In this document: positions 21,420-56,061 of the stretch, piece by piece
How the letters are laid out: each line of letters begins with the position of its first letter
Numbering within the stretch: the stretch's first letter is position 1
Source: Lentisphaerae bacterium GWF2_50_93
GTDB lineage: Bacteria > Verrucomicrobiota > Lentisphaeria > Victivallales > GWF2-50-93
Length of the DNA: 64,000 bases
Assembly: GCA_001804815.1 (NCBI GenBank)
Contig: MHBI01000088.1
Span: 12,224 to 76,223, forward strand
Direction: 5' to 3'
The notes under the pieces: generated by a model
What the model saw: the letters and a program-made list of their open reading frames with translations, nothing else
What the model was told of the DNA's origin: nothing
Databases searched by the model: none
Translations under genes and position numbers: made by a program

Positions 21420-21519
21420 AGTAGGTACTGGCTTTAGCCTGTACCATGAATTTATAGAATGGTACATCCTTCCGCCTTCGCAGGGATGCTACGGCGGACA
21501 CAGAAAGGACGTACCTACT
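21420..21519. repeat. MITE-like element (AGTAGGTAC..GCTT.AGCCTGTACCAT termini), short copy
   Basis: The left end agtaggtactggctttagcctgtaccatgaa and right end ggacgtacctact are related to the termini of 28514-28658. Confidence 0.7.
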
Positions 21520-28512: not shown

Positions 28513-28513
28513 A

Positions 28514-28658
28514 AGTAGGTACGAGCTTCAGCCTGTACCATGAATTCCGCGTCTGCTGCAGTAGCGCTTTGACGTAGCTGAAAGCTTGTACATGGAAAGA
28601 TTCCCTACAGCTCCATTATGAAATTGAAGAATGGTACAGGCTGAAGCCCGTACCTACT
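28514..28658. repeat. MITE-like element (AGTAGGTACG.GCTTCAGCCTGTACCAT termini), long copy
   Basis: 28514 agtaggtacgagcttcagcctgtaccat pairs with atggtacaggctgaagcccgtacctact ending at 28658, a terminal inverted repeat of about 28 bp. It starts 2 nt after the M6 stop codon. Confidence 0.85.
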
Positions 28659-28785
28659 TGAAGAACAGATCTCACCTGCAACTTTGTACTTCCGAATGTA
28701 GCGTTCGCCGCCTCGGAGAAGATCTTAAGATTCTTGCCCGGGACGGGCAACCCTGCATCAGAAATACAAACACAACCGGGACGTT

Positions 28786-28903
28786 GTAGTAGCGCATGTT
28801 TGCGCGTTTTTCGGTTTTAAAATGGAGCGCCGGTCTCCAGGCCGGCTTCTTGCCGACCTGGAGGTCGGCGTTCCTTTAAGAACGCGCAAACATGCGCTAC
28901 TAC
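28786..28903. repeat. MITE-like element (GTAGTAGCGCATGTTTGCGCG termini), complete copy
   Basis: gtagtagcgcatgtttgcgcg (28786-28806) is the perfect inverted repeat of cgcgcaaacatgcgctactac (28883-28903). Internal hairpins are ccggtctccaggccgg and gccgacctggaggtcggc. The right two-thirds recur at 50261-50359. Confidence 0.9.
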
Positions 28904-28921
28904 AAACGAATCACACCCGGT

Positions 28922-29117
28922 GTCATCCCAGAGGATGACGGCCTAATGGATTTATGGATTGCTGGATTATTGGGTTTGAGTTCAAGATAACACAAAAGCC
29001 ATGGAGATGCATGAGGATTATAGGAAAAGCATTTCGGATAATTTATCCATGCTGTTTTTGCTCTTATGTCTTTGAAACCCAACCATCCAGAAATCCATGA
29101 ATCCAATAATCCATGAA
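28922..29117 (+). repeat. Full-length 8-bp-periodic GGAT hairpin element, copy B
   Basis: A hairpin gtcatcc-caga-ggatgac lies at 28922-28939. The left arm is ggatttat ggattgct ggattatt gggtttga. The core spans about 28970-29080. The right arm is ccaaccat ccagaaat ccatgaat ccaataat ccatgaaa. It is in inverted orientation relative to copy A. Confidence 0.85.
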
Positions 29118-29150
29118 ATTGAATTTAGTAACATGTATGACCGCTAAAAC

Positions 29151-29178
29151 TTGACATAATTATCCCACGATGTAGATT
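29151..29178 (+). promoter_or_regulatory. Candidate sigma70-type promoter for the first Rhs gene
   Basis: TTGACA (29151-56), a 16-nt spacer, then TAGATT (29173-78), about 40 nt upstream of the ATG at 29219. Pattern match only. Confidence 0.45.
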
Positions 29179-29218
29179 CCACTTATCACGTAAGGCAAAT
29201 CATGTCTGGGGGGCAGCC

Positions 29219-32200
29219 ATGCATACTCCATTTTCGTCCCGATGCACAACCGCGCTGGCCAGTCTTCTTTTATTCATCTCCTTCACATCCGCACAGGCGG
29301 AGGATAAAAGCCTCGGAGCCTGGACGGCGAAAGACCCGAGTACGGCCTTGTATAGAATCTACGGCATGGCATTCGGGAACAACACATATGTCATAGCCGG
29401 TTACAACGGCGGCACATGTAAGAGTTTCATTGCAAATTCTCCTGACGCGACAACCTGGACCCTGAGATCCACGGGAAGCACATCCTTGGAATTCAACTCC
29501 GTGATTTTCTCAAAAGGCCGTTTCATCGCGGTATGCGGACAGCCTGATTCAAAGACCGCCAGGATCTGGACATCGGACACCAATGGCAACACCTGGGTGA
29601 GCAGGAGCTCCAATATCACTGTCGCAGGCAAACTTAATGCAGTTGCTTCGGACGGCAATGGCAGACTTATCGCCGCAGGAGCGAATGCTGATGGCGACGG
29701 ATGGCTGACGGTTTCAACTGACAACGGAACAACATGGTTTACCCCCGAGGGTGCGTCCTTCCCTGGAGAAACATTCTACGGTGTAGGATATGCCATCGGA
29801 AACTGGTATGCGTTCTCGACGTCGGGGACCTACAAGTCAACAAACGGGGGAACTGCCTGGGCTTCAGTGGCGGGATCTCCTGCCGTAGACGACAAAGGAT
29901 ATAAAGTCGCTTCAAACAAGACAACGGTCGTTGTCGCCTCATCAACTGGCCCCATATGGTCGAAGGATGGCGGAGCGACGTGGTATGCAGGCACGTATGC
30001 AAATGGGTTTACAGGTTCCCTGACATCGGCGGCATCAAGCGTAGTCTATGCGGATGGCACATTCGTTCTTGCCGGACGCAACTCGGGAGAGGCATGGAGC
30101 TCTGAAACCGGCCAGACCTGGAAGAGATGGACACTTCCCTCAACTACCACTTACGCCTTATGCTACGGAAAAAAATCGTTCTGGTGCGGAGGCGCGTTTG
30201 CCATGCACAACATACCAACGATTTCAAAATCCCCTTCCTGGTTCAAGGCGCGTCTCGGATGCAGCAGCGATTATCCATACACAATATTCGATGCCGAGGA
30301 CGGACCGCCGAACCGCATAGGCCTTCCGCAGTACAGGGTCAACACCGCATCTTTGAACCTTGTCCTCGAAAGCACATTGTTCTACGTCAAGGCCCTGGGA
30401 TCACCCATCAATTTTAAGCTGGTCTACAATTCCAGGCCGACCGATGACGACAATTCGACCATAGGGCCGTTCGGCAAGAACTGGCGCTTCCGCTACGAGT
30501 CGGTGGTTGGACGATTCGGACAGGATGCTATACTCGTCAAGGGCGGAGGCAGAAACTTCGCCTTCACCACGCCCAAGGGAGAGAACCTCGACACCTACTC
30601 GGGCCCTGACGCGGAATTGATTCTCGATCCTCCGGACGGGACATTTGACAAACTTGTCTACAAGCATGCGGTTCCGAGCTTCGAACTTACTATGAAATCC
30701 TCGCATCTCAAATACATATACGGGACCAAGGGCAGTACGGCAGACGTAAACGACAGCCTCTTCTATCTTTCCGCCATCGAGGACCAGTTCGGGAATACGA
30801 CAACCCTGTCCATAGACGCCCCCACCGGGCGGATCGACTCCATAGCAAATGGCGGCAGAACCTTCTCATTCACCTACACTGGCTCACTTTGCAGCGGAAT
30901 CAGCATTCCCGACGGGCGTTCCGTCGACTTCACCTACGACGCACACGAAAACCTCACCAGCATAACGGACATGAGGGGCTACCAGGGAACATATGCCTAC
31001 GACGCTGCTAATCTTGGGTTCCTCATGTCAATGTCGACGGCAGGCAAGACCACGACTTTCACTTATGCGGACAGACCGGGCTACAACGAAGCAGGCACCG
31101 TCGAGAACTTGGGCGACAAATATCTCAAGTCGCTCACCCGCCCGAACGGGAGCATTACGAAATATGAGCTCCTGGACGGCGGAGACACGGTGAAGCGCAC
31201 ATCACCGTCGGGAGAGATCACTCTAATATCCAACGAGGAAGGGCAGACTACTTCCGTGAAGGATCCGCTTGGAAACGTGCGCAACATAACGTTCAACGAC
31301 GCAAAGCTCCCCTCCTCTGTCACCGACGAAAAAGGCGGGGTCTATACCTACGAATATGTCAACGGCAACATGACCAGGCAGACGGATGCAATGGGGAGGT
31401 CGACCTCTTATGAATATGATGCCAGCAGCAACCTCATAAGAACCACCAACGCCCTTGGAAAATCCTGGACATATACCGGCTATGCGAACTATCAGCCTGG
31501 CAAGATCACCACACCCATGCTCTATGAGACAAATTTCACCTATTGGCCAAATGGGCGCATGAAGGACATAACCGATGCACGCGGTAATAAAACGTCCTTC
31601 ACCTATGACCCGTACGGCAATCTTGATACTGCGACATCCCCGGCTCCGGTCAGTGCAGTAACGGATCTCACCTACGACCCGCAGGGGTTCAGGTGCACCA
31701 AGATGAAAGATGCCAGCTTGAACGAAAAGGCACTGGAATGGGATGCCAACGACCGCCTCCTGTCCATCACCTATGATACCGTCGCAGACCTGCCTGCATA
31801 CACAAACACATACAATGCTTTCGGACAGACAGGATTCACAGACGAGCTTGGAAAATCCAGCACAGTGGTCCGTGACGAACTCGGATTCATAACATCAGTG
31901 ACGAATCCACTCGGACATGTCACCCGGAAGGAATACGACGCTGATCTACGGCCTTCGAAGACCATTGATCCCCTGGGCAGGGCGACATCGACCTCGTATG
32001 ACAATGCTGGGCGTCCAATCCTTTTTACCGACGCCAGGGGATTCAAGATAGTAAAGGAATATGACAGCACCGGAAACCTCGTCTCCTTCAAGGACAAGAA
32101 CGGTGCGGAAACGAAATACACCTATGACACTAACGGCAGGCTCGTGTCAACCTCTGATCCTCTCAAAAAAACCTACACGATCACCCGCGATATCATCGGA

Positions 32201-33982
32201 AGGATATCCTCGACCACGAACGCAAGGCTCCAGGTCATAGGCTATGAATATGACGACAATGGCCTCTTAAAAAAGAAGACGTTGACAGGGGCTGCGACAC
32301 CACTCGTTGAAAACACGCTCGACGAAAATGGAAACATCACAAAACAAATCGATTCCTGGGGAAGCACCCCCGCCACCGCCACGCAATATGCGTATGACAC
32401 CAACAACCGCGTGACAAGCATAACATACCCGGATGCGAAAACCGTGGCCTTGACTTACAACAATACAGGAAACATCGCCACCATAACCTATCCTGACGGT
32501 CTTGTCGCCACTTACACTTACGACACCTTCAACCGCCAGCCTGTACCGTCCATCCTCAAGAACAATCCCGGAACTGAGATTGCAGGACAGAGCCGATCGA
32601 CAAATGCCATTACGGACGTCACGCTTTCCGGAGCAGCTTCCGCCAATTTCACACTTTCGTATGACAAGCGCGGCAGGATCAGCACATTGACCCGACCGGA
32701 TAATTTCACAAAATCCGACTATACCTATGACGATGCGGGAAGGACAACCAGGTTGGTCCACAGCAAGACCGGAGGATCTGCGGCAGTGGATTTCACTGTT
32801 GAATGCAGTCCTAACGCCGTAGGCAACCTTTCCTCGGAAAACTTCTGCGGAGCATCTTATTACCAGTCCGCCCAGACGCCTTCATCCATGGCCCTTGCCT
32901 ACAATGCAGCTGGACAGCTCATGAAAAAAGGAGTGGAGGCCTGCATAAGCGATGCGGACGGCAATCTCACCGATCTCGGGGCAGGAACCGTGAAATGCAC
33001 ATATGACGCTGAAAACAGGCTCACCAGGATGGTCAGGAAAGCAGGCACGACCACTGACAACACCTACAACGCCAGCGGTCTCCGCGTCAAGCGCGTAATC
33101 GGCAGCGAGACAATCTTCTATCATTACCTGCCATCAGGCACCCTTCTTTTCACGACGGACGGAAGCGGGACGGTGATGGACAGGCATGTTTTCGCGGGCG
33201 GGACTCTTCTTGCGACTCTTAAAGCTTCGGGAGCTCTGATCCACTATTACGGCGACCTGCAGGGCAACGCAAGGTTCATAGCAGACAATTCCGGTGCCGT
33301 TCTTGTGCAATACGACTACCTGCCATATGGACAGGTCGGCACGAACAAACTCGGAATTAACGATGCTCTGATAGACAATAATCCTTTCACCATGAATGGC
33401 ATCCTCGGAGTCCAGGACGAAGGCGACGGCATATTCTGCATGGGGAAACGTTTCTACGAGGCGGCTTCGGCTCGCTTCCTCAGCCGGGATCCCCTTGGTT
33501 TTACAGCAGGCTCGAATCTTTATGCGTTTGGGAGGAACAATCCGATAATCTATGCGGATCCTACCGGAAAAATACCTGTAGTTGTGCCTCTTGTAATGGC
33601 AGGTGCGGGCTTCATCTACTGGTGCATGAGTTCGTCAAAAAGTCACGAAGAAGCAAATGCCGAAGCTGCTGCCATCAACGCCAAATACCGGGCAGAAGAG
33701 CTTAAAAAGGCAAAAGAACTGAATGATCGCCTCAAAGGATATCACGGCCGTGAGAGGGAAATGATGATGGAGGCGGAGGGGCTTCACTCATCCCAGTCTA
33801 ATGCCGTCGATGCATTGCATGAAGGTGTTGACCAGGCAGCCAATCGCATGGGAGAGGTTGGAGAGATTGGCGCGAACACGGCTCAAAACTTGATTACTGG
33901 AGGAGCTGTAGGCGCAGGATTGGATGCTGGCGGCGCTATTTCAGAAGAGATTGAAAACCAGGGTGCCGAGCAGGAGGAATAA
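29219..33982 (+). CDS. Rhs/YD-repeat protein 1 (1587 aa): signal peptide, BNR/Asp-box propeller, YD-repeat shell, Rhs core, 136-aa tip
   Basis: The signal peptide is ...LASLLLFISFTSAQA. Asp-box motifs include STDNGTTW, SKDGGATW, SDTNGNTW and SETGQTW. The Rhs entry region is LPQYRVNTASLNLVLESTLFY. There are many YD repeats (FTYDAHENL, YEYDASSNL, KEYDSTGNLVSFKDKNG...). The Rhs-associated core ends RFYEAASARFLSRDPLGF...NNPIIYADPTGK (DPTGK at 33557-33571). Confidence 0.92.
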   Translation: MHTPFSSRCTTALASLLLFISFTSAQAEDKSLGAWTAKDPSTALYRIYGMAFGNNTYVIAGYNGGTCKSFIANSPDATTWTLRSTGSTSLEFNSVIFSKGRFIAVCGQPDSKTARIWTSDTNGNTWVSRSSNITVAGKLNAVASDGNGRLIAAGANADGDGWLTVSTDNGTTWFTPEGASFPGETFYGVGYAIGNWYAFSTSGTYKSTNGGTAWASVAGSPAVDDKGYKVASNKTTVVVASSTGPIWSKDGGATWYAGTYANGFTGSLTSAASSVVYADGTFVLAGRNSGEAWSSETGQTWKRWTLPSTTTYALCYGKKSFWCGGAFAMHNIPTISKSPSWFKARLGCSSDYPYTIFDAEDGPPNRIGLPQYRVNTASLNLVLESTLFYVKALGSPINFKLVYNSRPTDDDNSTIGPFGKNWRFRYESVVGRFGQDAILVKGGGRNFAFTTPKGENLDTYSGPDAELILDPPDGTFDKLVYKHAVPSFELTMKSSHLKYIYGTKGSTADVNDSLFYLSAIEDQFGNTTTLSIDAPTGRIDSIANGGRTFSFTYTGSLCSGISIPDGRSVDFTYDAHENLTSITDMRGYQGTYAYDAANLGFLMSMSTAGKTTTFTYADRPGYNEAGTVENLGDKYLKSLTRPNGSITKYELLDGGDTVKRTSPSGEITLISNEEGQTTSVKDPLGNVRNITFNDAKLPSSVTDEKGGVYTYEYVNGNMTRQTDAMGRSTSYEYDASSNLIRTTNALGKSWTYTGYANYQPGKITTPMLYETNFTYWPNGRMKDITDARGNKTSFTYDPYGNLDTATSPAPVSAVTDLTYDPQGFRCTKMKDASLNEKALEWDANDRLLSITYDTVADLPAYTNTYNAFGQTGFTDELGKSSTVVRDELGFITSVTNPLGHVTRKEYDADLRPSKTIDPLGRATSTSYDNAGRPILFTDARGFKIVKEYDSTGNLVSFKDKNGAETKYTYDTNGRLVSTSDPLKKTYTITRDIIGRISSTTNARLQVIGYEYDDNGLLKKKTLTGAATPLVENTLDENGNITKQIDSWGSTPATATQYAYDTNNRVTSITYPDAKTVALTYNNTGNIATITYPDGLVATYTYDTFNRQPVPSILKNNPGTEIAGQSRSTNAITDVTLSGAASANFTLSYDKRGRISTLTRPDNFTKSDYTYDDAGRTTRLVHSKTGGSAAVDFTVECSPNAVGNLSSENFCGASYYQSAQTPSSMALAYNAAGQLMKKGVEACISDADGNLTDLGAGTVKCTYDAENRLTRMVRKAGTTTDNTYNASGLRVKRVIGSETIFYHYLPSGTLLFTTDGSGTVMDRHVFAGGTLLATLKASGALIHYYGDLQGNARFIADNSGAVLVQYDYLPYGQVGTNKLGINDALIDNNPFTMNGILGVQDEGDGIFCMGKRFYEAASARFLSRDPLGFTAGSNLYAFGRNNPIIYADPTGKIPVVVPLVMAGAGFIYWCMSSSKSHEEANAEAAAINAKYRAEELKKAKELNDRLKGYHGREREMMMEAEGLHSSQSNAVDALHEGVDQAANRMGEVGEIGANTAQNLITGGAVGAGLDAGGAISEEIENQGAEQEE

Positions 33983-34203
33983 GGTAATTCAAAATCACTG
34001 CCGTCCAATGGATGATTGGATGACCCGCCTTCGCTGGGAAGCTTTTTTTGGGTTGCGGATCTTTTTGGCTCAAAAAAGAATCTTCCACAACGCGCCGAAT
34101 GCGAATTTTTAGAGGTTCCCAGAATTTACTGGACTTTCTCCTCCTTTTAGGATAAGATTAACTTCGTTGCGAAAGCGGTAATTCAATCCTCTCTGGAGGG
34201 AAT

Positions 34204-37200
34204 ATGATTACTTCATGGGGTTCACGGCTCCAAACGGCCATCGCCGGACTCATCCTATTCTCAATATTCGCATCAGCCCAGGCAAGCGACACGCTCGGGG
34301 CATGGACAGCGAAAAATCCCGGGCTCAGCCTTGACGGGAATTACCAGATTTATGGCATGGCATACGGCAACAACACCTATGTGATTGTCGGAAAAAGCAA
34401 CAGCACAGGCAAGGCTTTCACAGCCAATTCCACTGATGGGACGCACTGGACCCTGAGAGGTGTTGCAAGCGAATCTGAGATCTTCAACTCGGTTATTTTC
34501 TCCAAGGGCCGTTTCATTGCAGTATGCACAAAACCGGCTACCGGCAGCGCCCGGATCTGGACGTCCGACAACAATGGCGGCACCTGGACGCCCAGGAGTT
34601 CCGACCTTCTTGTGGACGGCAGTTTGAATGGAGTCGCCGGTGACGGCAACGGCAAACTGGTTGCCGTCGGTGAAATCACCGATGTCTGGAATGGATGGAT
34701 CACTTGTTCATCGGACAATGGCAACACCTGGAGCGTTGTCCGCGACGGAGCAGTCTACAAGACGTTTCCAACGAAATTCTTTGGCGTAGGATATGCACTC
34801 GGCAATTGGTATGTGCTTGGATCAAACGGAGTTTATAAGTCGAATGGGATCGACTGCACGGCTTGGACCGACCCGGTGCCTGATTCCTCGCAGTTCTATA
34901 CGCAGAGCGACGACCTGCCGGGTTATAAGTTCGCTTCGAACCAGACAACGATTGTCGCGGCTTCGCTGTCCGGCCCCAAATGGTCGGACGACAATGGCGC
35001 CAACTGGAGCGATGGCGCACCGGCGCCGGGTTTCGAAGCAGTAGCCTCCCTGTACAGCTGGACTTCAAGCGTGGTTTATGCGGAAGGCCTGTTCGTCGTT
35101 GCGACACGCCGCGACGGGGATGTCTGGACTTCCGAGGATGGCCGGACATGGGAGAGGCGGACGCTGCCGACGGCGGATGAGACAAACGCGCTCTGCTACG
35201 GGAATAAATCATTCTGGTGCGGCGGCCTGTCGGAGACAATTGCAGTATCCGGGCCATGGCTCAAGGCCCGGATCGGCGGCAGTACGGATTTCCCATATAC
35301 GCTGTTTGACGCCCAGGACGCCCCTCCGAACCACATCGGCCTTCCACAGTACCGGGTCAATACCGCATCACTGAACCTTGTCATGGAAGGCACTCTTTTC
35401 CATATGAAGACCTTGGGCGCGTCGATCAACCTCAAGCTGGTCTATAATTCGCAGCCCTGTGCGGACGATGCGACAGACATCGGGCCGTTCGGCAAGAACT
35501 GGCGGTTCCGTTACGAGTCAGTTGTCGGACGCTCCGGCAAGAATGCCAGGCTGGTCAATGGCGGCGGCAGAAGCATGACATTCACCACTCCCAACGGTGA
35601 GGATCTCGGAACTTATGCAGGTCCTGAAACAGCATTGACCCTGAAATCTCCGGAAGGCATCTATGACAAGCTTGTCTACAAATATGCGGTTCCGAGCTTC
35701 GAACTTACCTTGAAAGCCTCCCATCTGAAATACACTTATGCCGTAACGGACAGCAACTCAGGCGGCAGCCAGTTCCATCTCTCCAGCATCTCGGATCAGT
35801 TCGGCAATACGACGACTCTCAATATCGACCCAACCAGCGGCGCCGTCACCAAGATAACAGATTCATCCTTACGGGAAATCAACTTTACCTACAATCCCAA
35901 CCCTGCAACGGGACTTTGCACCGGAATGACAATGCCGGGACGATCGGTCAGTTTCAGTTATACCGGAAAAAATCTCGCTGGCATTACTGACGCAGAGGAA
36001 TTTTCAGGCACGTATGCCTACGACTCCAACGGATTTATCACCTCGATGACGACAGCAGGCAAAACCACCACGTTCACATACAAGGACAGGGTCGGCGTCA
36101 GCAATGGCGATAAATCCCTTGCCACGGTCACGCGTCCCGGTGCATACGGCACGATCAAATACGAAATCCTGGAGGACGGCAAGACCGTAAAACGCACGGA
36201 TCCGCTTGGTCAGTCGACGATTATTTCCAGTTCGGGAGGCCAGACGACATCAGTCAAGGATCCGCTGGGGAATGTGCGGAGCATCGCCTTCAGCGGAGCG
36301 AAGCTTCCGGAAACTTTCACGGATGAGAAAGGCGGCGTCTGCAGATACGAATACGATTCCCGCGGCAACATGACCAGGAAGACCGACGCCCTCGGAAATA
36401 TTACAAATTATTATTACGATCCTGCGACTGACGATATGACCAGGATGGAAGACGCCTTCGGCTATCCATGGGTCTATGCCTATTCTAATTGCCAGCCGAC
36501 AAGTATAACTACACCCGTAGGAAACATCACCTATTTCGCCTATGATGGACAGGGTCGTCTTACAACCCTCACCGACGCACGCGGCACTGACACGGATTTC
36601 ACCTATGACAAGGGAGAGGTGGCTACAGTTACAAGCCCTGCTTCAGGCACGACAACTTTTGCATACGATGTTGCATCACGCTGCATCTCAATCCAGGACG
36701 CAAATCTCAAGACAAAATCCCTCTCCTGGGACAATAACGACCGTCTGGAAACCGTAACCTATAATTCCGTTGCTGGACCACCGTCATACTTGAACGGCTA
36801 CTCCGCTTTTGGACAGACCTCCTTCCAGGACGAACTTGGCGAATGGACATATGCCACCCGCGACGACCTGGGATCCATCACAACAATCCGCGATCCCCTT
36901 AACAACGTCAACCAGATGGAATACGATCTTGACAACCGGCTGACCAAGACCATCGATCCCCTGCTGCACTCGAGAGCGACTTCCTACGACAGCGCAGGAC
37001 GACCGACAATATTCACGGACGCCAGAAGCTACAAGGTCGTGCGCGAATACGACAGCACCGGCAACCTAGTATCCTTCAGGGATTCGAATAATTCCACCAC
37101 GACCTATAAATACGATGCGAACGGCCGTCTGCTGAGTGTCATGGATCCGCTCCTGAAGTATAACACCATGACCCGGACGAAGACAGGTCAGATCGCCTCC

Positions 37201-38973
37201 ACCAAAAACGCACGCAGCCATACTATAAACTATACATATGATTTTGATGGACGGCTCCAGGAAAAAGCACCGGCGGCACCAGCACCGGCGACCAAGGTCG
37301 CGTATGTGCGGGATCCCAACGGCAACGTCACAACACGGACCGACACATCGGAGGGAACTGATTTCATCACAGGCTATGTATATGATTCAAGCAATCGTAT
37401 CACGAAAATCACCTATCCGGACGGCAAAGTGGTTGATTTGACATGGCTTGCAGGCGGACAGCTCGCCAGCATCGCCTATCCCGACGGCCTCGCCGTCACC
37501 TACAGCTATGACAACTTCAACCGTATTCCAATACCTTCGGTGCTGAAGAACAATCCCGGAACCGATCTTGTGGGCGAAAGACGTTCCACGAATGCAATTA
37601 CCAAGGTCGCTGTCACGGGCGCCGTCAACGATGATTATGATTTCACTTACAATGACCGTGGGCAGATCACCCAGATGCTGCGGCCGAACGGGACACAGTC
37701 CGATTATGCCTATGACAATGCTGGACGCCTCATCCAGATCAAGCACAGCGTGACAGCGGACGGCACAAGCCTTTTCCTTGCCGACTACGGCATGGATGCC
37801 GCGGGAAATGTCATAAGGGAACAATCTGTCGGAACCGCATACTATCAGGGCAATGATCTGCCGGAAAAGATGGCGATGCTCTACAACACGGCCGGGGAAC
37901 TCACCAAGAAGGGTGCCAAGGCCTGTACGAGCGATGCCGACGGAAATCTCACGGATCTCGGAGCCGGAACGACGAAATGCACATATGACGCCGAGAACAG
38001 GCTCACGGCAATTGTCAGGAAAATAAATGCGACAACGACAGAGACCATTGTCAACACGTTCGATTCAGACGGCTACCGCATCAGGCGAGTCAACGGCGCC
38101 GAGACGATCAATTATCACTACCTGCCATCCGGCATCCTGCTATTCACTACAGATGATGCAGGTGTCATCATTGATCGCCATATCTATGCCGGAAATTCAC
38201 TTCTCTCGACCTATAAGGCCAATGGGGATTGGCTTGACTACTACGGGGACCGGCAGGCGAATGTGAGATTCATCGCCGATGCCACAGGCGCCGTGCTTGT
38301 GGAATATGGATACCTTCCCTACGGGCAGTTTGACAGCCTCATGACGGGGGTGAACGATGGAGCAATAGACAAGAATCCCTTCACCTTCAACGGCATGCTG
38401 GGCGTCCAGGATGAAGGAAGCGGCCTGTTCTACATGCAGCAGCGCTTCTATGACGCCTCCACCGCCCGGTTCCTTGGCAGGGATCCTCTCGGGTTCTCGG
38501 CGGGCAACAACCTTTACGCTTTCGGCAAGAACAACCCCATTATCTATGCCGATCCGACCGGAAGGATTCCGGTATTCATCGTAATTCTTGGACTAGTATC
38601 ATTTGCCCACTATGGCCTGGGAATCTTTGAAAGCCATGACAATGCAAATGCGAATGCTGCGGAAATCAACGCCAAATATCGTCAGAAGGAGCTGGAAGCA
38701 AAAAAGAAATTCAATGAGACATTTAAAAGCAATCCCAAGGATTTCAATCAGAAATTGGCCAATGCTCAAAAAACAAGCAACATGTATGAGCGCGGATTGA
38801 GCAGTTTGTTTGAAACTACCGAACAGGTCGGCAACCGCGCCGGCGAAGCGGCCGAGATTGCCGGGAGTACGGCTGAAAACGTGGCTCTGGGCGATTATCT
38901 TGGCACAGCCTGGGATGCCATCAAGGCCACCTACACCGACTTTACAAATGAAAGCGCAGAAACGGGTAAATAA
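34204..38973 (+). CDS. Rhs/YD-repeat protein 2 (1589 aa), paralogue of Rhs1 with a different 135-aa tip
   Basis: GGAGGG lies before the ATG at 34204. The signal peptide is ...LILFSIFASAQA. Asp-boxes include SSDNGNTW, SDDNGANW and SEDGRTW. The same LPQYRVNTASLNLVMEGTLFH region and YD repeats are present. The core ends RFYDASTARFLGRDPLGF...NNPIIYADPTGR (38551-38565). Confidence 0.92.
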   Translation: MITSWGSRLQTAIAGLILFSIFASAQASDTLGAWTAKNPGLSLDGNYQIYGMAYGNNTYVIVGKSNSTGKAFTANSTDGTHWTLRGVASESEIFNSVIFSKGRFIAVCTKPATGSARIWTSDNNGGTWTPRSSDLLVDGSLNGVAGDGNGKLVAVGEITDVWNGWITCSSDNGNTWSVVRDGAVYKTFPTKFFGVGYALGNWYVLGSNGVYKSNGIDCTAWTDPVPDSSQFYTQSDDLPGYKFASNQTTIVAASLSGPKWSDDNGANWSDGAPAPGFEAVASLYSWTSSVVYAEGLFVVATRRDGDVWTSEDGRTWERRTLPTADETNALCYGNKSFWCGGLSETIAVSGPWLKARIGGSTDFPYTLFDAQDAPPNHIGLPQYRVNTASLNLVMEGTLFHMKTLGASINLKLVYNSQPCADDATDIGPFGKNWRFRYESVVGRSGKNARLVNGGGRSMTFTTPNGEDLGTYAGPETALTLKSPEGIYDKLVYKYAVPSFELTLKASHLKYTYAVTDSNSGGSQFHLSSISDQFGNTTTLNIDPTSGAVTKITDSSLREINFTYNPNPATGLCTGMTMPGRSVSFSYTGKNLAGITDAEEFSGTYAYDSNGFITSMTTAGKTTTFTYKDRVGVSNGDKSLATVTRPGAYGTIKYEILEDGKTVKRTDPLGQSTIISSSGGQTTSVKDPLGNVRSIAFSGAKLPETFTDEKGGVCRYEYDSRGNMTRKTDALGNITNYYYDPATDDMTRMEDAFGYPWVYAYSNCQPTSITTPVGNITYFAYDGQGRLTTLTDARGTDTDFTYDKGEVATVTSPASGTTTFAYDVASRCISIQDANLKTKSLSWDNNDRLETVTYNSVAGPPSYLNGYSAFGQTSFQDELGEWTYATRDDLGSITTIRDPLNNVNQMEYDLDNRLTKTIDPLLHSRATSYDSAGRPTIFTDARSYKVVREYDSTGNLVSFRDSNNSTTTYKYDANGRLLSVMDPLLKYNTMTRTKTGQIASTKNARSHTINYTYDFDGRLQEKAPAAPAPATKVAYVRDPNGNVTTRTDTSEGTDFITGYVYDSSNRITKITYPDGKVVDLTWLAGGQLASIAYPDGLAVTYSYDNFNRIPIPSVLKNNPGTDLVGERRSTNAITKVAVTGAVNDDYDFTYNDRGQITQMLRPNGTQSDYAYDNAGRLIQIKHSVTADGTSLFLADYGMDAAGNVIREQSVGTAYYQGNDLPEKMAMLYNTAGELTKKGAKACTSDADGNLTDLGAGTTKCTYDAENRLTAIVRKINATTTETIVNTFDSDGYRIRRVNGAETINYHYLPSGILLFTTDDAGVIIDRHIYAGNSLLSTYKANGDWLDYYGDRQANVRFIADATGAVLVEYGYLPYGQFDSLMTGVNDGAIDKNPFTFNGMLGVQDEGSGLFYMQQRFYDASTARFLGRDPLGFSAGNNLYAFGKNNPIIYADPTGRIPVFIVILGLVSFAHYGLGIFESHDNANANAAEINAKYRQKELEAKKKFNETFKSNPKDFNQKLANAQKTSNMYERGLSSLFETTEQVGNRAGEAAEIAGSTAENVALGDYLGTAWDAIKATYTDFTNESAETGK

Positions 38974-39118
38974 GAGGAAGCATCGATGACGTCAAAGTCT
39001 TTTATATGGAGTATGTTAAATTGATGTTAAACTATACAACACAGCTGGATTTTTCCATCCCGGATGGTAGTGTTATCCACAGTGTTTCAAAATCAATTTA
39101 TCATGCTAGGGGGTCGGT

Positions 39119-42100
39119 ATGAAAATGTTTCGTCATCCGCGCATCTCGTCGCTGCTTTCAGCGCTTTTTTTCTTCTCCTTATTAACTTCAGTCCAGGCCG
39201 CCAGCGACAGCCTCGGGACGTTTACGGCGAAAAATCCCGGGCTCAGCACCACGGAAATCTATGATATCTACGGCATGGCCTACGGCAACAACACCTATGT
39301 AATTGTCGGGCAGAACTACATCACAGGAAAGGCTTTTACTGCCAATTCAACTGATGGCAAGACATGGACAATAAGATCATCAGGAAGCACATCTGCACTT
39401 TTCCATTCCGTAATTTTTTCAAATGGCCGTTTCATTGCCGTGTGCAAGCAGCCTGACTCGGGGAATGCCCGTATCTGGACATCCGATACCAATGGCAACT
39501 CCTGGGTGACCCGTAATACCGACAATGCCGGACTCATTGTTCCAGGTGGATTGCACGGCGTTGCTTCTAATGGCAATGGAAAACTCGTTGCCGTTGGAGG
39601 AACACCTTATCTGAGTGGATGGATGACCGTTTCAAACGACAACGGGACCACCTGGAGAGTTGTCCGCAACGGAGCCGGGACCGATTACGAGTCATTCCTC
39701 AATAAGTTATACGCTGTTGGCTATGCACTCGGAAACTGGTATGCTTTTTCCACATCAGGAACCTATCGATCAGACGATCCGGCTACGGCATCCTCCTGGA
39801 TCAGCGGCGGTCCGGCAGTTGACAATATCCAGATGCTGGGATATAAAGTCGCTTCAAATCAATCAACCATTGTTGTCGCCTCATCCACTGGTCCGAAATG
39901 GACGATAGACAATGGACTGACCTGGCATACCGGCACGCAGGCAAAAGGCTATGAAAGTGTAAGTTCCCTGACCGATGCCGCATCAAGCGTAGTTTACGCG
40001 GATGGTTATTTTGTCCTGGCAACCCGGGAACCCTATTACAACGGTGACGACTTCAAATATTACGCAGATATCTGGATCTCCGAAACCGGACGCCAATGGA
40101 AACGGTGGAGAACTGCACAATTAATGCACGACGCCGATTACACTTTTTCACTCTGCTATGCTAAAAGGGCATTCTGGTGTGGTGCATTGAGAGAAAGACT
40201 TTCGAAATCTCCTTCCTGGTTCAAGGCGCGTAACGGGTGCAGCTCCGATTATCCATACACAGTTTTTGATACCGAGGACGGCCCGCCGAACCGTATCGGG
40301 CTTCCGCAGTACCGTGTCAACACCGCATCGTTGAATCTGGTTCTTGAAGCCACTCTCTTCTATGCAAAAACACCTGCCGCACCTCTCAACTTCAAGCTCG
40401 TCTACAATTCCAAGCCCTGCGCAAACGGCGACACGTCGATCGGCCCGTTCGGCAAGAACTGGCGGTTCAGGTATGAGTCGGCAGTCGGCCGTTTCGGACA
40501 GGAGGCGCAGGTCATCGCCGGAGGCGGACGCAGCCACACTTTCGCGACGCCCAACGGAGAGGATCTTGAAACTGTCACCACCGACGTCACACTCAAGGCA
40601 CCGGACGGAATATTCGACGAGCTGAAGTACTATTACAACGGCGGAGTTTCAAGGTTCGAGCTGTCCCTGAAGTCATCGCATCTCACCTACATATATGGCA
40701 CCGCCGGCACAGGCCCCGACAATACCGGTCTTTTCTATCTCACCGGGATCACGGATCAGTTTGGCAAGACGACGACTCTGAACGTCAGCGCCGCCACCGG
40801 ACTGATCAACTGGATAGATGATCCTTCAACCCCGGCCCGCTCATTCACCTTCGCCTACAACGGCGAGAACCTTTGCACAGGAATTTCTATTTCCGGCGGA
40901 CGCTCCGTAGGTTTCTCGTACGATGCCGACAAGAATCTCATCGGCATCGATGACATGATGGACTACCACGGTTCGTACGCATATGATGAATATGGGTTCA
41001 TGACCTCGATGACTACGGCAGGAAAGACCAATACTTTCACATATGTTGACAGGCCCGGCTACGAGACCGATCCGATTGAAACCCGCGACAAATATCTCTC
41101 TTCCATCACCAGGCCCGGCGGAAAGAAGATCAAGTATGAGCTTCAGGACGAAGGTGAAACTGTCAAGCGCACTGATGCCGCCGGCGAGATAACCCTTTTT
41201 TCCAACAAGGACGGACAAACCACCAAAATAACCGACCCTCTGGGCAATATCCGCACGATCGAATATAATGGCGCCAAGCTGCCGGAAACTGTGACAGACG
41301 AAAAAGGCGGGGTGTTCACCTATAAATATGACGAAAAGGGAAACATGACCGAAAAGAAGGACGCCATGGACAACGTCACGGCCTGCGAATATGATTCCGA
41401 CAGCAACGTCACTAAAGTCACAAACGCCCTGGGCAAGTTCTGGGACTACACTTATAACACGAAGTACCAGCCCCTGACCATCACCACACCTCTCGGCAAC
41501 GACACTACCTTTACCTATGTTGGCAAGAATCTTACCAACATCAACGATTCCAGAGGCAATGATACTTCCTTTGGATATGACACCTACGGCAATCTCATTT
41601 CGATATCACCGTCCACGTCATTCACGTACACCGACAAATTCCACTGCGATTTCATCACGGACGCCAATGGCAAGATTAAGGCAATCGCCTGGGACAACAA
41701 CGACCGCATTACGACGGTAACCTATACCTCCGCCGGCGGCGCTTCGTATACCAACACCTATAACGCCTTCGGCCAGATTAATTTCACGGATGAACTTGGT
41801 CAGGAAACTGCGATTGTCCGCGACGAACTCGGCTACATCACATCGATCACCGACCCGCTTGGAAACATAAGCCAGACCGAATACGATGCAGAAAGCCGTC
41901 CTATCAAGAAAACCGATCCTCTGGGCAGGATTACCTCGACAACCTACGACAAGGATGGGCGTCCGATAGTATTCACCGACTCCAAGGGCTATACAATCAC
42001 CCGCAGCTATGATGGAGGCGGGAACCTCATTTCCTTCAAGGACAAGAACAGTTCGGAAACGACATTCTCATATGACGCGAACAACAGGCTTGTCGGCACA

Positions 42101-43945
42101 ACCGACCCCCTCAAGAAAATCTCCTCCATAACTCGTGATGCGATTGGACGGGAAGCGACCATCACAAATGCGCGCGGACAGACCGTCACCTGCTCCTATG
42201 ATGACGACGGAAGGCTTTCCGGCAAAACCTCCAGCGTCGCCGGTTCCACGCCGATCGCATATACCCGCGATGGCAACGGCAACATACTTACTCAGACAGA
42301 TGCCTGGGGCACGACAACATACACATATGACGACTACAACCGAATCCTGTCCATAACCTATCCTGACACGACAGCTGTAGCTCTGACATGGAAAGCCGGT
42401 GGACAAATCGATACCATAACCTATCCGGGCATTACCGCCCTTGCCGTATCCTATACCTACGACAACTTCAACCGATATCCTGTCCCCAGCATCCTCAAAA
42501 ACAATCCCGGCACCGAACTTTTCGGCGAAAGCCGCACCACAAATGCCGTTACGGGAATTGCAGTGACCCTTGGCGGAGCACCGCATGGCAACTATGCCAT
42601 GACCTATAACAGCCGTGGTCAAATCACCCAGATGACCCGTCCAAACGCAACACAGTCGGACTACGCATATGACAGTTGTGGGCGTGTCACACAGATCAAG
42701 CACAGCGGTGGTAACAATGTCGACTTCACTGCCGACTATGCCTTCAATGCCGTTTCCAACGTCACTTCTGAAACCTTCTCCGGCGACTCCTATTATCAGG
42801 ACACAGAGCTTCCCCTCAAGATGGCTTTGACCTACAACATCGCGGGGCAGCTCACCAAAAAGGGCGCACAGTCCTGTATCAGCGATGCTGACGGGAACAT
42901 AACCGACATCGGCGCCGGGACAATCAAGAACACGTATGATGCCGAGAACAGGCTCATTCAGACCGTCCGGAAAATCGATGCCACAACAACAGAGACCATA
43001 AACAACACCTACAATGCGGCCGGACTCCGCGTAAAGAAGGAGATTGTAGGCGGAGACACGATAGTATATCACTATCTGCCCTCCGGAATCCTTCTTTACA
43101 CCACCAACGGGCTCGGAACGCTCATCGACCAGCATGTCTATGCAGGCAATGCGCTCGTCGCAACATATGATCCGCCTAATAATAAAGCCATCCAATATTA
43201 TGCCGACCGTCAGGCGCATGTCCGCCTGATAGCAGACGTCAATGGTGAAGTACTGGTAAAATACGATTACCTGCCCTACGGCCAGGTGGCCACATACAAG
43301 CTCGGTGTCAAAGATGAGGAGATCGACAAGAATCCCTTCACCTTCAATGGTGTCCTTGGAGTTCAGGACGAAGGGAACGGCGGATTCTACATGCAGCAGC
43401 GCTTCTATGATTCCTTGAGTGCGCGATTCCTTTCAAGAGATCCTCTGGGTTTGAATGCCGGAAACAATCTCTACGCCTTCGGAGGCAACAACCCAATGTC
43501 GAATGCCGACCCCACAGGAAAATTCATAGATCCCCTTTCCCTCGTTGTCTATGGCCTCGCAATAACGGCCGTAGTGGGGGCAACGTCTTATGCCGTTGAT
43601 GCGGTGAAATCCTCCATGGCTGATGTCAAAAAAGCTTCTGATGCCCGAGGTGACATGATTGAGTCATTCAAGAAGAACGGAGATACAGCTGAAAGCTGGC
43701 AGAAGCATGACAAGTCTGTTGACTTGACGCTGGATGCGAACGAAAATACAATGAGAAGGACTGGACAGGTCATAGTAAACACCGGCATAGAAGTCGGAAA
43801 GGCCCTGATTCCTGGAGCGAACACGCCTGCCGGGAAGATTGTCCAAGACATCGTTACAGACCAGATCGTGGACAATGCTATAAAAGAGCCACTCCTGGAT
43901 TCCATGGAAGCGCCGCAGCCACAACAAACCGAGGGAGGAGAATGA
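39119..43945 (+). CDS. Rhs/YD-repeat protein 3 (1608 aa), paralogue with a third distinct 140-aa tip
   Basis: The signal peptide is ...LFFFSLLTSVQA. Asp-boxes include SNDNGTTW and SDTNGNSW. LPQYRVNTASLNLVLEATLFY and YD repeats are present. The core ends RFYDSLSARFLSRDPLGL...NNPMSNADPTGK (43508-43522). The stop TGA at 43943-43945 overlaps the ATG at 43942. Confidence 0.92.
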   Translation: MKMFRHPRISSLLSALFFFSLLTSVQAASDSLGTFTAKNPGLSTTEIYDIYGMAYGNNTYVIVGQNYITGKAFTANSTDGKTWTIRSSGSTSALFHSVIFSNGRFIAVCKQPDSGNARIWTSDTNGNSWVTRNTDNAGLIVPGGLHGVASNGNGKLVAVGGTPYLSGWMTVSNDNGTTWRVVRNGAGTDYESFLNKLYAVGYALGNWYAFSTSGTYRSDDPATASSWISGGPAVDNIQMLGYKVASNQSTIVVASSTGPKWTIDNGLTWHTGTQAKGYESVSSLTDAASSVVYADGYFVLATREPYYNGDDFKYYADIWISETGRQWKRWRTAQLMHDADYTFSLCYAKRAFWCGALRERLSKSPSWFKARNGCSSDYPYTVFDTEDGPPNRIGLPQYRVNTASLNLVLEATLFYAKTPAAPLNFKLVYNSKPCANGDTSIGPFGKNWRFRYESAVGRFGQEAQVIAGGGRSHTFATPNGEDLETVTTDVTLKAPDGIFDELKYYYNGGVSRFELSLKSSHLTYIYGTAGTGPDNTGLFYLTGITDQFGKTTTLNVSAATGLINWIDDPSTPARSFTFAYNGENLCTGISISGGRSVGFSYDADKNLIGIDDMMDYHGSYAYDEYGFMTSMTTAGKTNTFTYVDRPGYETDPIETRDKYLSSITRPGGKKIKYELQDEGETVKRTDAAGEITLFSNKDGQTTKITDPLGNIRTIEYNGAKLPETVTDEKGGVFTYKYDEKGNMTEKKDAMDNVTACEYDSDSNVTKVTNALGKFWDYTYNTKYQPLTITTPLGNDTTFTYVGKNLTNINDSRGNDTSFGYDTYGNLISISPSTSFTYTDKFHCDFITDANGKIKAIAWDNNDRITTVTYTSAGGASYTNTYNAFGQINFTDELGQETAIVRDELGYITSITDPLGNISQTEYDAESRPIKKTDPLGRITSTTYDKDGRPIVFTDSKGYTITRSYDGGGNLISFKDKNSSETTFSYDANNRLVGTTDPLKKISSITRDAIGREATITNARGQTVTCSYDDDGRLSGKTSSVAGSTPIAYTRDGNGNILTQTDAWGTTTYTYDDYNRILSITYPDTTAVALTWKAGGQIDTITYPGITALAVSYTYDNFNRYPVPSILKNNPGTELFGESRTTNAVTGIAVTLGGAPHGNYAMTYNSRGQITQMTRPNATQSDYAYDSCGRVTQIKHSGGNNVDFTADYAFNAVSNVTSETFSGDSYYQDTELPLKMALTYNIAGQLTKKGAQSCISDADGNITDIGAGTIKNTYDAENRLIQTVRKIDATTTETINNTYNAAGLRVKKEIVGGDTIVYHYLPSGILLYTTNGLGTLIDQHVYAGNALVATYDPPNNKAIQYYADRQAHVRLIADVNGEVLVKYDYLPYGQVATYKLGVKDEEIDKNPFTFNGVLGVQDEGNGGFYMQQRFYDSLSARFLSRDPLGLNAGNNLYAFGGNNPMSNADPTGKFIDPLSLVVYGLAITAVVGATSYAVDAVKSSMADVKKASDARGDMIESFKKNGDTAESWQKHDKSVDLTLDANENTMRRTGQVIVNTGIEVGKALIPGANTPAGKIVQDIVTDQIVDNAIKEPLLDSMEAPQPQQTEGGE

Positions 43946-43947
43946 CC

Positions 43948-55247: not shown

Positions 55248-56061
55248 CTGCGTGGCCGCATTGCTCCTAGCCGCGTTTTATCCTGTCTGGAAATACTGCG
55301 GGAGCCGCTGGATCGCAAATGATGAAACGGCCGCCTGCCTGCCTCTGCTGCTGATCCTTTTCATGTGGATCAGGAGGATGTACGGCATTGGGCGCCTTGG
55401 AGCTGGTGAGGACGCTGCGCACAGACTGGGAAGAGCGGACTTTCTAGCCATGTCGGCCATGCTCGGGATATATATTCTGGCATATCACCATACCTTCATG
55501 CTGCTGCGCGCGATTATCGCCTTGACGGTTCTGGGCATAGTATTCAGCAGGAGGCTCAAGGGCAGGATTATCGATGTATCAGTCTTCGGACTGCTTTTTC
55601 TGTCGCTGCCTGCGATACCCACCGCCCAGTTCTACTTCGGATATCCGCTGCGCGTGATAGTTGCCAAATCCTCGTCGGCGCTGCTCGGGATGCTCAGTTA
55701 TGACGTATCTTCATCAGGAACTTCGATCTTCTGGGACGGGAAATGCATTTCCGTCGATGCCCCGTGCAGCGGGATACGAATGCTTTATGCCGGAGTTCTC
55801 CTTGTCCTTCTGCTAGGCTATTTCCGCAATCTTTCATTAAAGGGATTGTGCCTGCTGGCGCTTGCCGGGACAGTGGCTGTCATCTTCGGCAATGTCGTCC
55901 GCGCCACAGTCCTTTTCTTCACGGAGACAGGCATTGTCGCATTTGGCAGGGATTTCCTGCACACAGCCATAGGCATATCGGTCTTCATCTGGATTGCAGC
56001 TGGAATCTACGTCATTTCAGAATGGCTCGTAAAAAGGAGAGAAACGTGCATTGCCGTATGA
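55216..56061 (+). CDS. Exosortase-family transpeptidase (polytopic membrane protein, 281 aa)
   Basis: The start is a GTG at 55216 and is uncertain; it overlaps the upstream gene by 32 nt. The protein has multiple TM helices. The exosortase-type N-terminal region is WIANDETAACLPLLLILFMWIRR. The catalytic-Cys motif is VDAPCSGIRMLYAG (compare the conserved CSG[LI]R of EpsH-type exosortases). Confidence 0.75.
   Translation: MGWLRKTFSDDCVAALLLAAFYPVWKYCGSRWIANDETAACLPLLLILFMWIRRMYGIGRLGAGEDAAHRLGRADFLAMSAMLGIYILAYHHTFMLLRAIIALTVLGIVFSRRLKGRIIDVSVFGLLFLSLPAIPTAQFYFGYPLRVIVAKSSSALLGMLSYDVSSSGTSIFWDGKCISVDAPCSGIRMLYAGVLLVLLLGYFRNLSLKGLCLLALAGTVAVIFGNVVRATVLFFTETGIVAFGRDFLHTAIGISVFIWIAAGIYVISEWLVKRRETCIAV

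Follow-up and report, generated by a model that had tools for sequence, protein, structure and literature searches.

We present a computational analysis of an array of three Rhs genes (Rhs1, Rhs2 and Rhs3), and of the short C-terminal domains, or tips, in which their products end, in a stretch of 64,000 nucleotides from Lentisphaerae bacterium GWF2_50_93 (contig MHBI01000088.1, positions 12,224 to 76,223), the whole of which is referred to here as the window. With a probability of roughly 0.55, the tips can be regarded as the exchangeable cargo of Sec-exported, Lentisphaeria/Victivallales-specific Rhs/YD toxins, which would be caged, autoproteolytically released and membrane-active in the manner of Tse5-CT, the C-terminal part of Tse5 from Pseudomonas aeruginosa, or of the C-terminal domain (CTD) of BiTLP from Bacillus inaquosorum. 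An initial annotation of the window had described these tips as short, non-enzymatic and devoid of immunity genes, and the open reading frames (ORFs) and coordinates on which it was built were recovered as given.

The array consists of four genes on the same strand, namely Rhs1, Rhs2, Rhs3 and a 987-aa ORF that overlaps the Rhs3 stop codon (Table 1). No convincing terminator was found between the four genes, and it is therefore probable from the DNA that Rhs1, Rhs2, Rhs3 and this last gene, termed the partner here, form one operon; the best sigma-70-like promoter candidate lies upstream of Rhs1, and no Rfam match was obtained in 28400-47300. All three Rhs products are built in the same order of Sec-type signal peptide (for example MHTPFSSRCTTALASLLLFISFTSAQA), BNR-like beta-propeller region, DUF6531 plug, YD-repeat shell, Rhs-associated core and tip. 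The propeller region N-terminal to DUF6531 gave weak BNR_2 / F510_1955-like matches only in Pfam and NCBIfam, and the shell is recognized by Pfam RHS_repeat in 8 stretches of each protein (E=1e-62, 3e-54 and 9e-62 for Rhs1-3), by TIGR01643 and, in precomputed annotation, by TEN_YD-shell. The Rhs_assc_core model (TIGR03696; 54-59 bits, cut-off 32.5) ends exactly at the Gly of DPTG in all three proteins, in each of which the protease signature RFLSRDPLG-x19-DPTG with its upstream Arg is intact. Domain searches of the window revealed no PAAR or VgrG domains in the Rhs proteins or in neighbouring genes. Three features by which Rhs/YD polymorphic toxins are recognized, namely YD repeats, a core with a DPxG pair and Arg, and a variable, exchanged C-terminal domain, are thus present. 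Rhs1 is identical to a protein of a Lentisphaeria metagenome-assembled genome (MAG) from a groundwater metagenome, and its nearest relatives are annotated as Victivallales.

It had been noted that similarity between the paralogues drops directly after DPTG[KR], whose codons lie at 38551-65 in Rhs2 and at 43508-22 in Rhs3, and the comparison bears this out, with TIGR03696 stopping at the same Gly. Taken in pairs, the shells of Rhs1-3 are 57-60% identical in their entirety; the figure rises to 71% in the final 100 residues and to 73-83% in the 30 that precede the boundary, against 3-31% in the 30 that open the tip and 17-32% for the tip as a whole. The tips measure 137, 136 and 141 aa if the residue behind Gly is taken as the first. 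Their shortness, which had been presented as a peculiarity, is in fact not unusual, because characterised Rhs/YD cargos are of about 15-16 kDa; Tse5-CT has 149 aa, the RhsA and Rhs1 cargos described along with it are of about 15 kDa (PMC10684867), and the CTDs of TLPs average about 15 kDa (PMC13018210). A hydrophobic segment of 19-21 residues opens each of the three tips, in keeping with the initial annotation. Tips 1 and 2 had been related to each other through one segment only and proved to be homologous throughout (E=4e-17, with 32% identity in an alignment of 133 aa). Tip 3, with three predicted helices and a Pro/Gln-rich acidic end (PQPQQTEGGE), is unrelated to them or very distantly so (E=0.03-0.08; hhalign not significant), much as had been proposed.

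A full-length search gathered about 57 relatives within Lentisphaeria/Victivallales (proteins are denoted here by P numbers and loci by L numbers). Apart from one fragment of 1209 aa and one protein of 1424 aa, they measure 1496-1640 aa with tips of 115-194 aa, and from these near-uniform sizes it can be deduced that the architecture is conserved, the tip included. By a crude hydrophobicity test 46 of the 57 have signal peptides, and the other 11 mostly look truncated at the N-terminus or have weaker hydrophobic N-termini. Clustering of the tips yielded at least 15 types without detectable mutual similarity, most of which contain hydrophobic or Gly/Ala-rich segments. Tips 1 and 2 grouped with those of P0013 and P0015, and tip 3 with those of P0008, P0011 and P0019 and more loosely with P0006, P0009, P0017 and P0018; in profile-profile comparison the tip 3 cluster gave weak co-linear matches to other clusters (E=0.002-0.05). 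The Rhs1 shell is about 70% identical to the shells of P0002 and P0003, whose tips, of a type with an HExxH motif, are unrelated to tip 1. Conversely, P0002 and P0027 share 45% of shell and 54-56% of tip residues, and P0010 and P0021 share 48% and 50-56%, respectively. Since the identities of shell and tip are decoupled in this manner, the tips are cassettes exchanged between shells, which is the hallmark of polymorphic toxins.

The ratio of non-synonymous to synonymous substitution rates (dN/dS) is 0.15 for the tail of tip 2, i.e. the part behind its hydrophobic segment, and 0.17 for the shell, both against the P0013 orthologue (L006), so that the tail is a constrained and functional domain. 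This value bears directly on the notion that the tips are decaying, non-functional remnants, for which the lack of homologues outside the clade and the low confidence of the structure models described below could be adduced. Reading frames are, however, intact in all paralogues and orthologues, and tip types have been kept across shells that diverged to 45-50% identity, so that decay is highly improbable.

Searches of families and structures placed none of the tips. No Pfam match was obtained for tips 1-3 or for any of the 13 tip types tested, no enzyme family was matched by these 13 types, and no PDB chain similar by sequence was found with the family profiles of tip 1/2 and tip 3 (best E=0.6). 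When 1.84 billion representatives were searched exhaustively with a profile of the tip 1/2 family, one 61-aa fragment was the sole match, the source proteins probably being represented there by relatives with other tips, and in a scan of species genomes the tip 1/2 type was located solely on this Rhs family, in MAGs of Lentisphaerae/Victivallis; neither the profile nor the species-genome search placed the same tips on other scaffolds. Sequence searches with tip 1 alone or with the tip 3 alignment returned no match, the source proteins included, which is taken as a limit of the word index and not as evidence. The AlphaFold (AF2) models are all-helical with a leading hydrophobic helix, at low confidence (pLDDT 44.9 for tip 1 and 58.7 for tip 3), and their comparison with the PDB by Foldseek gave generic helical matches only, with E above 0.8 and of no interpretive value.

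Known enzymatic toxin folds, which the initial annotation had set as grounds against its own proposal, were sought by Pfam and PDB sequence comparison, and none matched. The description of the tips as non-enzymatic is nevertheless overstated as a property of the family, in which the above-mentioned sister type of about 140 aa (P0002, P0003, P0027 and P0029; L003 10001-14854) carries the HExxH motif LKHE[AS]xHDKQY and tips 1 and 2 share a strongly conserved polar motif, described below. The HExxH type has no hydrophobic segment, no Pfam match and no adjacent immunity gene.

The hydrophobicity of the opening segments was gauged as an approximate Hessa free energy (dG) of the best 19-mers, summed without position weighting. 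The values of +3.5, +0.6 and +1.9 kcal/mol for tips 1, 2 and 3 are indicative of marginal hydrophobicity, and two prolines lie in the segment of tip 1. Many sister tips are Gly/Ala/Thr-rich, and those of P0005, P0016, P0017, P0024, P0031 and P0041 are more hydrophobic, with approximate dG of -0.5 to -1.75. A glycine zipper, as suggested earlier for tips 1 and 3, is not supported: GGAVGAGLDAGGA of tip 1 aligns with GDYLGTAWDAIKA of homologues, with two Gly conserved only, and the Gly-rich stretch of tip 3 contains conserved prolines. The broader proposal of small membrane-inserting payloads remains reasonable in the light of Tse5-CT and the BiTLP CTD, by which cargos of this kind have been established experimentally as a class.

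The same hydrophobic segment could instead be a stop-transfer anchor, with the tail of about 115 aa left in the cytoplasm and the shell either tethered to the producer's inner membrane or freed by cleavage at DPTG, in which case the tip would be no toxin and the cage would be empty or displayed in a teneurin-like fashion. A Sec signal at the N-terminus together with one hydrophobic helix late in the protein corresponds to the classic type I topology, the six more hydrophobic sister tips listed above would be hydrophobic enough, and missing immunity would need no explanation; moreover, Tse5-CT, once provided with a signal peptide for Sec, is integrated by way of SecYEG and causes cells to depolarise (PMC9637101). 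This reading is nevertheless disfavoured and quite unlikely, because the intact autoprotease site, one residue before the helix, would cut such an anchor off, because shells of about 70% identity carry helix-free tips (the HExxH type, clusters 3 and 15), and because at least 15 unrelated recombining tip types are the signature of a conflict system. From the sister tips without a hydrophobic segment it follows that the family needs no anchor, and the segments of tip 1 with its two prolines, of tip 3 and of many others, being only marginally hydrophobic, fit amphitropic toxins better than constitutive anchors. A tail conserved behind a freely evolving helix would point to an anchor, but this pattern was considered and rejected: it holds for Rhs2 versus P0013 (45% identity in the hydrophobic segment, 89% in the tail) and fails elsewhere, as in Rhs3 versus P0019 (74% and 55%).

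A C-terminal PEP-CTERM/exosortase sorting signal was likewise looked for in tips 1-3 and not found: they have no PEP motif, about 115 residues still come after the helix, and they end in acidic termini. The window does encode, in 52593-56061, a VIT-domain protein (884 aa) followed by an exosortase gene of the EpsH family (55216-56061), which is unrelated to the Rhs tips, there being no PEP-CTERM in them.

Directly after the hydrophobic segment of the tip 1/2 type lies its best-conserved part, the polar motif ESH[DE]NANAxxAEINAKYRxxEL, which raises the possibility that the soluble tail is the active part, as an enzyme or a specific binder, and that the leading helix serves membrane targeting or cage docking only. 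The conservation of this motif in tips 1 and 2 and their orthologues, the contrast of segment and tail just described for Rhs2 and P0013 and the HExxH motif of a sister type are in agreement with such a division of labour, and in Tse5 it is the first 27 residues of the CT that are ordered within the shell (PMC10684867). No family or structure is matched at any threshold, however; the fold predicted for the tips is a simple bundle or hairpin of helices, modelled at low confidence, and the pattern of variable helix and conserved tail breaks down as stated for Rhs3 and P0019. An active soluble tail is thus a distinctly unlikely explanation.

Typically, toxins of this kind would be accompanied by a cognate immunity gene, and its reported absence was confirmed in the window and beyond. 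The spacers behind Rhs1 and Rhs2 have exactly the 221 and 145 nt stated earlier and contain no plausible gene: ORFs of at least 20 aa in them are short, start with TTG or overlap neighbours, and show no transmembrane (TM) segment and no coding-like character. Antisense and overlapping ORFs in the tip regions (e.g. 43588-43905 on the minus strand) were inspected and discarded, as they resemble non-coding translations. Rhs3 has no trailing spacer at all, since the 987-aa ORF overlaps its stop codon. The survey was extended to seven other loci (L003, L004, L005, L006, L007, L010 and the P0005 contig), and of the 14 or more Rhs genes in these eight loci none has a small variable gene behind it, i.e. 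no cognate toxin-specific immunity gene was found immediately downstream in the window or in the seven other loci.

Two other kinds of neighbouring protein were weighed as immunity candidates and rejected, as neither co-varies with tip type. In some relatives the Rhs-partner array is followed by membrane-anchored HEAT-repeat proteins of about 250 aa (L003 22870-23646; L004 22632-24201); they are orthologous between L003 and L004 though the tip types differ, and have no homologue in the window. The partner proteins behind P0003 (HExxH tip) and P0007 (double-helix tip) are almost identical despite the different tips, and are therefore not cognate immunity proteins.

It could be argued that the tips are ordinary antibacterial toxins whose cognate immunity is unlinked and encoded elsewhere in the genome, beyond the 64-kb window, so that its apparent absence is an artefact of looking at adjacent genes only. 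The window is a 64-kb part of a contig that measures at least 292 kb, and in some relatives the HEAT-repeat membrane proteins follow the array, while one relative has an Rce1/CPBP-like membrane protease near its Rhs gene. Members of the Rce1/CPBP family are annotated as bacteriocin immunity proteins. Against this stand the uniform result from the eight loci, the failure of the HEAT proteins and of the P0003/P0007 partners to co-vary with the toxin, and the cassette exchange observed, by which unlinked pairs of toxin and immunity would be broken. Unlinked immunity can therefore be considered unlikely.

The slot in which an immunity gene would be expected is instead mostly occupied by the secreted partner. 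Eleven of the at least 14 Rhs genes are followed by it, at 2-70 nt or with overlapping stop and start codons; in the window it stands only after Rhs3, Rhs1 and Rhs2 being without one. The partners measure 410-533 aa in the other loci against 987 aa in the window, and have nothing in common beyond the signal peptide and a single YD repeat (YxYDxxNxLTxVxY...FxYDxxGNLTxV), behind which divergent Ig, He_PIG or PPC/fn3 modules follow. The partner may be a shell-docking accessory or a targeting subunit. As a separate observation, the last 300 aa of the 2311-aa M6-peptidase-like surface protein encoded upstream of the array (27613-28512) and those of the Rhs3 partner (46003-46905) are 46% identical (E=5e-87) and so share a C-terminal module.

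The junction of tip and partner gene is itself conserved. The sequence CAACAAACCGAGGGAGGAGAAT(G/A)ACCATGAAAA is kept in the window and in L007 and is slightly diverged in L004, across different tip types, and the codons with which the tip ends (QQTEGGE) serve at the same time as Shine-Dalgarno sequence for the partner (GAGGGAGGAG), which is why the C-terminal ...PQQTEGGE recurs in several unrelated tip types. Judging from these shared letters, the junction is a probable 3' recombination anchor of the tip cassette. Because of the comparison with the junctions of relatives, ATG 43948 (MKTF...) is also more likely to be the true start of the partner than ATG 43942.

Taken together, the following course of events can be envisaged for the caged, membrane-active cargo favoured here. 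Each Rhs protein would be exported by its N-terminal signal peptide, the YD shell would fold, and the aspartyl protease of the core (R...DPLG-x19-DPTG) would cut after the K/R that follows DPTG, a cleavage predicted by analogy with Tse5. An all-helical, marginally hydrophobic polypeptide of about 15 kDa would thereby be kept inside the cage until its release at a target cell, where the leading hydrophobic helix and the amphipathic tail would insert into the membrane and disturb it. Tip cassettes would be swapped by recombination between two anchors, the Rhs core at the 5' side and the partner-gene junction at the 3' side, and the single YD repeat of the partner would dock on the shell, with its remainder supplying adhesin or targeting domains.

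Several observations weigh against this proposal. The tips have no experimental or homology link to any known toxin, and in profile searches the tip 1/2 family is represented outside the clade by the 61-aa fragment only; the AF2 models are of low confidence (pLDDT 45 and 59), with nothing below E=0.8 in Foldseek, and the dG values are approximate, having been summed without position weighting. No immunity gene is present here, whereas Tse5 (with Tsi5) and almost all TLPs have one, and because Tse5-CT with a Sec signal depolarises cells, a Sec-exported hydrophobic tip without immunity should endanger its producer, except where it gets through SecYEG and is quickly caged. The producer must hence rely on the marginal hydrophobicity of the segment, on rapid caging after export, on an unlinked protective factor or on a target specificity that spares kin, and we infer that one of these would account for the avoidance of self-harm.

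A bolder version of the same idea, put forward only tentatively and in itself unlikely, is an immunity-free, Sec-exported two-component system in which an Rhs cage with small membrane-inserting or HExxH cargos is accompanied by a co-translated secreted adhesin with a YD 'handle' that steers it to cells unlike the producer (protists, other phyla), so that immunity would be unneeded; the PVC superphylum would thereby have a minimal counterpart of Tc toxins that does without TcA.

Table 1. Features of the Rhs array in the window and their counterparts in related loci (positions are those of the window unless a locus is named).
Feature	Position	Strand	Description
Putative sigma-70-like promoter	29151..29178	+	Best match, TTGACA-16-TAGATT, upstream of Rhs1; consensus match only
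Rhs1	29219..33982	+	1587 aa; Pfam RHS_repeat, DUF6531; NCBIfam Rhs_assc_core at residues 1367-1450
DPTGK of Rhs1	33557..33571	+	Second Asp motif of DPLG-x19-DPTG; putative aspartyl autoproteolysis site after the residue following Gly
Tip 1	33569..33979	+	137 aa; hydrophobic segment IPVVVPLVMAGAGFIYWCM at 33572-33628, then helical charged tail
Polar motif of tips 1 and 2	33638-33700 and 38632-38694		ESH[DE]NANAxxAEINAKYRxxEL; also in the L007 tip
Spacer Rhs1-Rhs2	33983..34203		221 nt, no credible gene; GGAGG Shine-Dalgarno before the Rhs2 ATG
Rhs2	34204..38973	+	1589 aa; architecture as Rhs1
Tip 2	38563..38970	+	136 aa; homologue of tip 1; hydrophobic segment IPVFIVILGLVSFAHYGLGIF at 38566-38628
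Spacer Rhs2-Rhs3	38974..39118		145 nt, no credible gene
Rhs3	39119..43945	+	1608 aa; architecture as Rhs1
Tip 3	43520..43942	+	141 aa, other tip type; hydrophobic segment LSLVVYGLAITAVVGATSYAV at 43535-43597
Conserved junction	43921..43953	+	CAACAAACCGAGGGAGGAGAATGACCATGAAAA; end of Rhs3 tip and start of partner; shared with L007 and, slightly diverged, with L004
Junction in relatives	L007 1872-1900; L004 14789-14816		L007 with tip-1-type tip; L004 with tip-3-type tip
Partner gene	43942..46905	+	987 aa from ATG 43942; signal peptide, one YD repeat, then PPC, fn3 and CarboxypepD_reg-like modules
Partner genes in relatives	L003 14923-16206, 21234-22514; L004 14812-16059, 21120-22373; L005 12876-14477		
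Further partner genes in relatives	L006 7311-8570; L007 1895-3178; L010 1093-2358		

With reference to the surroundings of the array, a giant ORF of 4503 aa (7828-21339), whose sole Pfam match is DUF4347, lies directly upstream of the M6-peptidase-like protein and the Rhs array, so that very large secreted proteins are clustered here. Long inverted repeats of two families, with arms of 29 nt and 28 nt that are 96-97% complementary, were also observed between genes (28513-28659 and 28784-28905). With more copies in other intergenic regions (at 21421, 1977 and 50337), they resemble repetitive extragenic palindromic (REP) or miniature inverted-repeat transposable elements (MITE).

Rhs/YD cages with small membrane-active cargos have been characterised only recently (Tse5 in 2022-23, BiTLP in 2026), both with cognate immunity. 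In the clade described here, all of it made up of Sec-exported Rhs proteins, the cargos recombine and are for the most part hydrophobic, and every locus examined has a conserved, YD-tagged secreted partner in the slot expected for immunity. The clade adds more than a dozen unannotated cargo families and would extend this class of toxins to Lentisphaerota, a phylum of the PVC superphylum that has received little study. Should the favoured reading be true, it would raise the questions of how a producer survives when a membrane toxin is exported through the Sec translocon of the same cell, by what means Rhs cages that depend on Sec reach and enter their targets in the absence of a type VI secretion system (T6SS) or TcA, and whether single YD repeats can act as docking handles.

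Among known systems, the TcB-TcC cocoon of Tc toxins resembles the Rhs1-3 products in its YD repeats, in the same C-terminal aspartyl protease (with PDB matches to TccC3 and YenC2) and in its hypervariable cargo. Tc loci are not known to carry an immunity gene, their targets being eukaryotic, and they need a separate targeting subunit; their cargos are enzymes of roughly twice the size. A TcA-like translocation subunit is missing here, unlike in Tc toxins, and the partner is no pentameric injector but an Ig/PPC/fn3 protein of 410-987 aa that has a single YD repeat.

Closer by sequence is BiTLP, the best PDB match of Rhs1 (9pt5/9ifo, E=4e-24). It is exported by Sec and signal peptidase I (SPI), and its CTD, which is hydrophobic and predicted to contain a TM segment, needs a signal peptide to be toxic: it breaks membrane integrity only when directed to the periplasm, and then makes E. 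coli permeable to propidium iodide (PMC13018210). Sec export, a YD shell with an autoproteolytic DPxG pair and polymorphic C-terminal domains of about 15 kDa are shared with the TLPs in general. Typical TLPs, however, combine an FN-plug, NHL and a YD shell, whereas Rhs1-3 show no NHL or TEN_NHL match and a BNR-like region before DUF6531, and it is because of the lacking NHL domain that they fall outside the TLP definition. Almost all TLPs also have a variable immunity gene immediately downstream, the slot occupied here by the conserved secreted YD-repeat protein, and Lentisphaerota is not among the six phyla reported for TLPs (PMC13018210).

In Tse5 (PA2684) the arrangement DPXG-X19-DPXG is cleaved between L1168 and I1169, one residue after Gly (PMC10684867); Rhs1-3 have the same spacing, and the cut is predicted at the same distance from Gly. 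Tse5-CT, for which no enzymatic function is predicted, is a caged cargo with TM and amphipathic helices that becomes active only through cleavage (PMC9637101, PMC10684867). The tips of 136-141 aa (about 15 kDa), with no enzymatic signature and with predicted hydrophobic and amphipathic helices, correspond to it, provided that they are caged as presumed. By sequence they belong neither with Tse5-CT nor with the BiTLP CTD. Unlike Tse5, which is a T6SS effector with a PAAR-like N-terminus and VgrG and has an adjacent 2-TM immunity gene (Tsi5), Rhs1-3 carry Sec signal peptides and an N-terminal propeller-like region, with no such gene next to them. Overall, save for two odd features, the absence of linked immunity and the Sec export of a hydrophobic cargo, the tips are mostly explained as a new, clade-specific version of a known kind of toxin.

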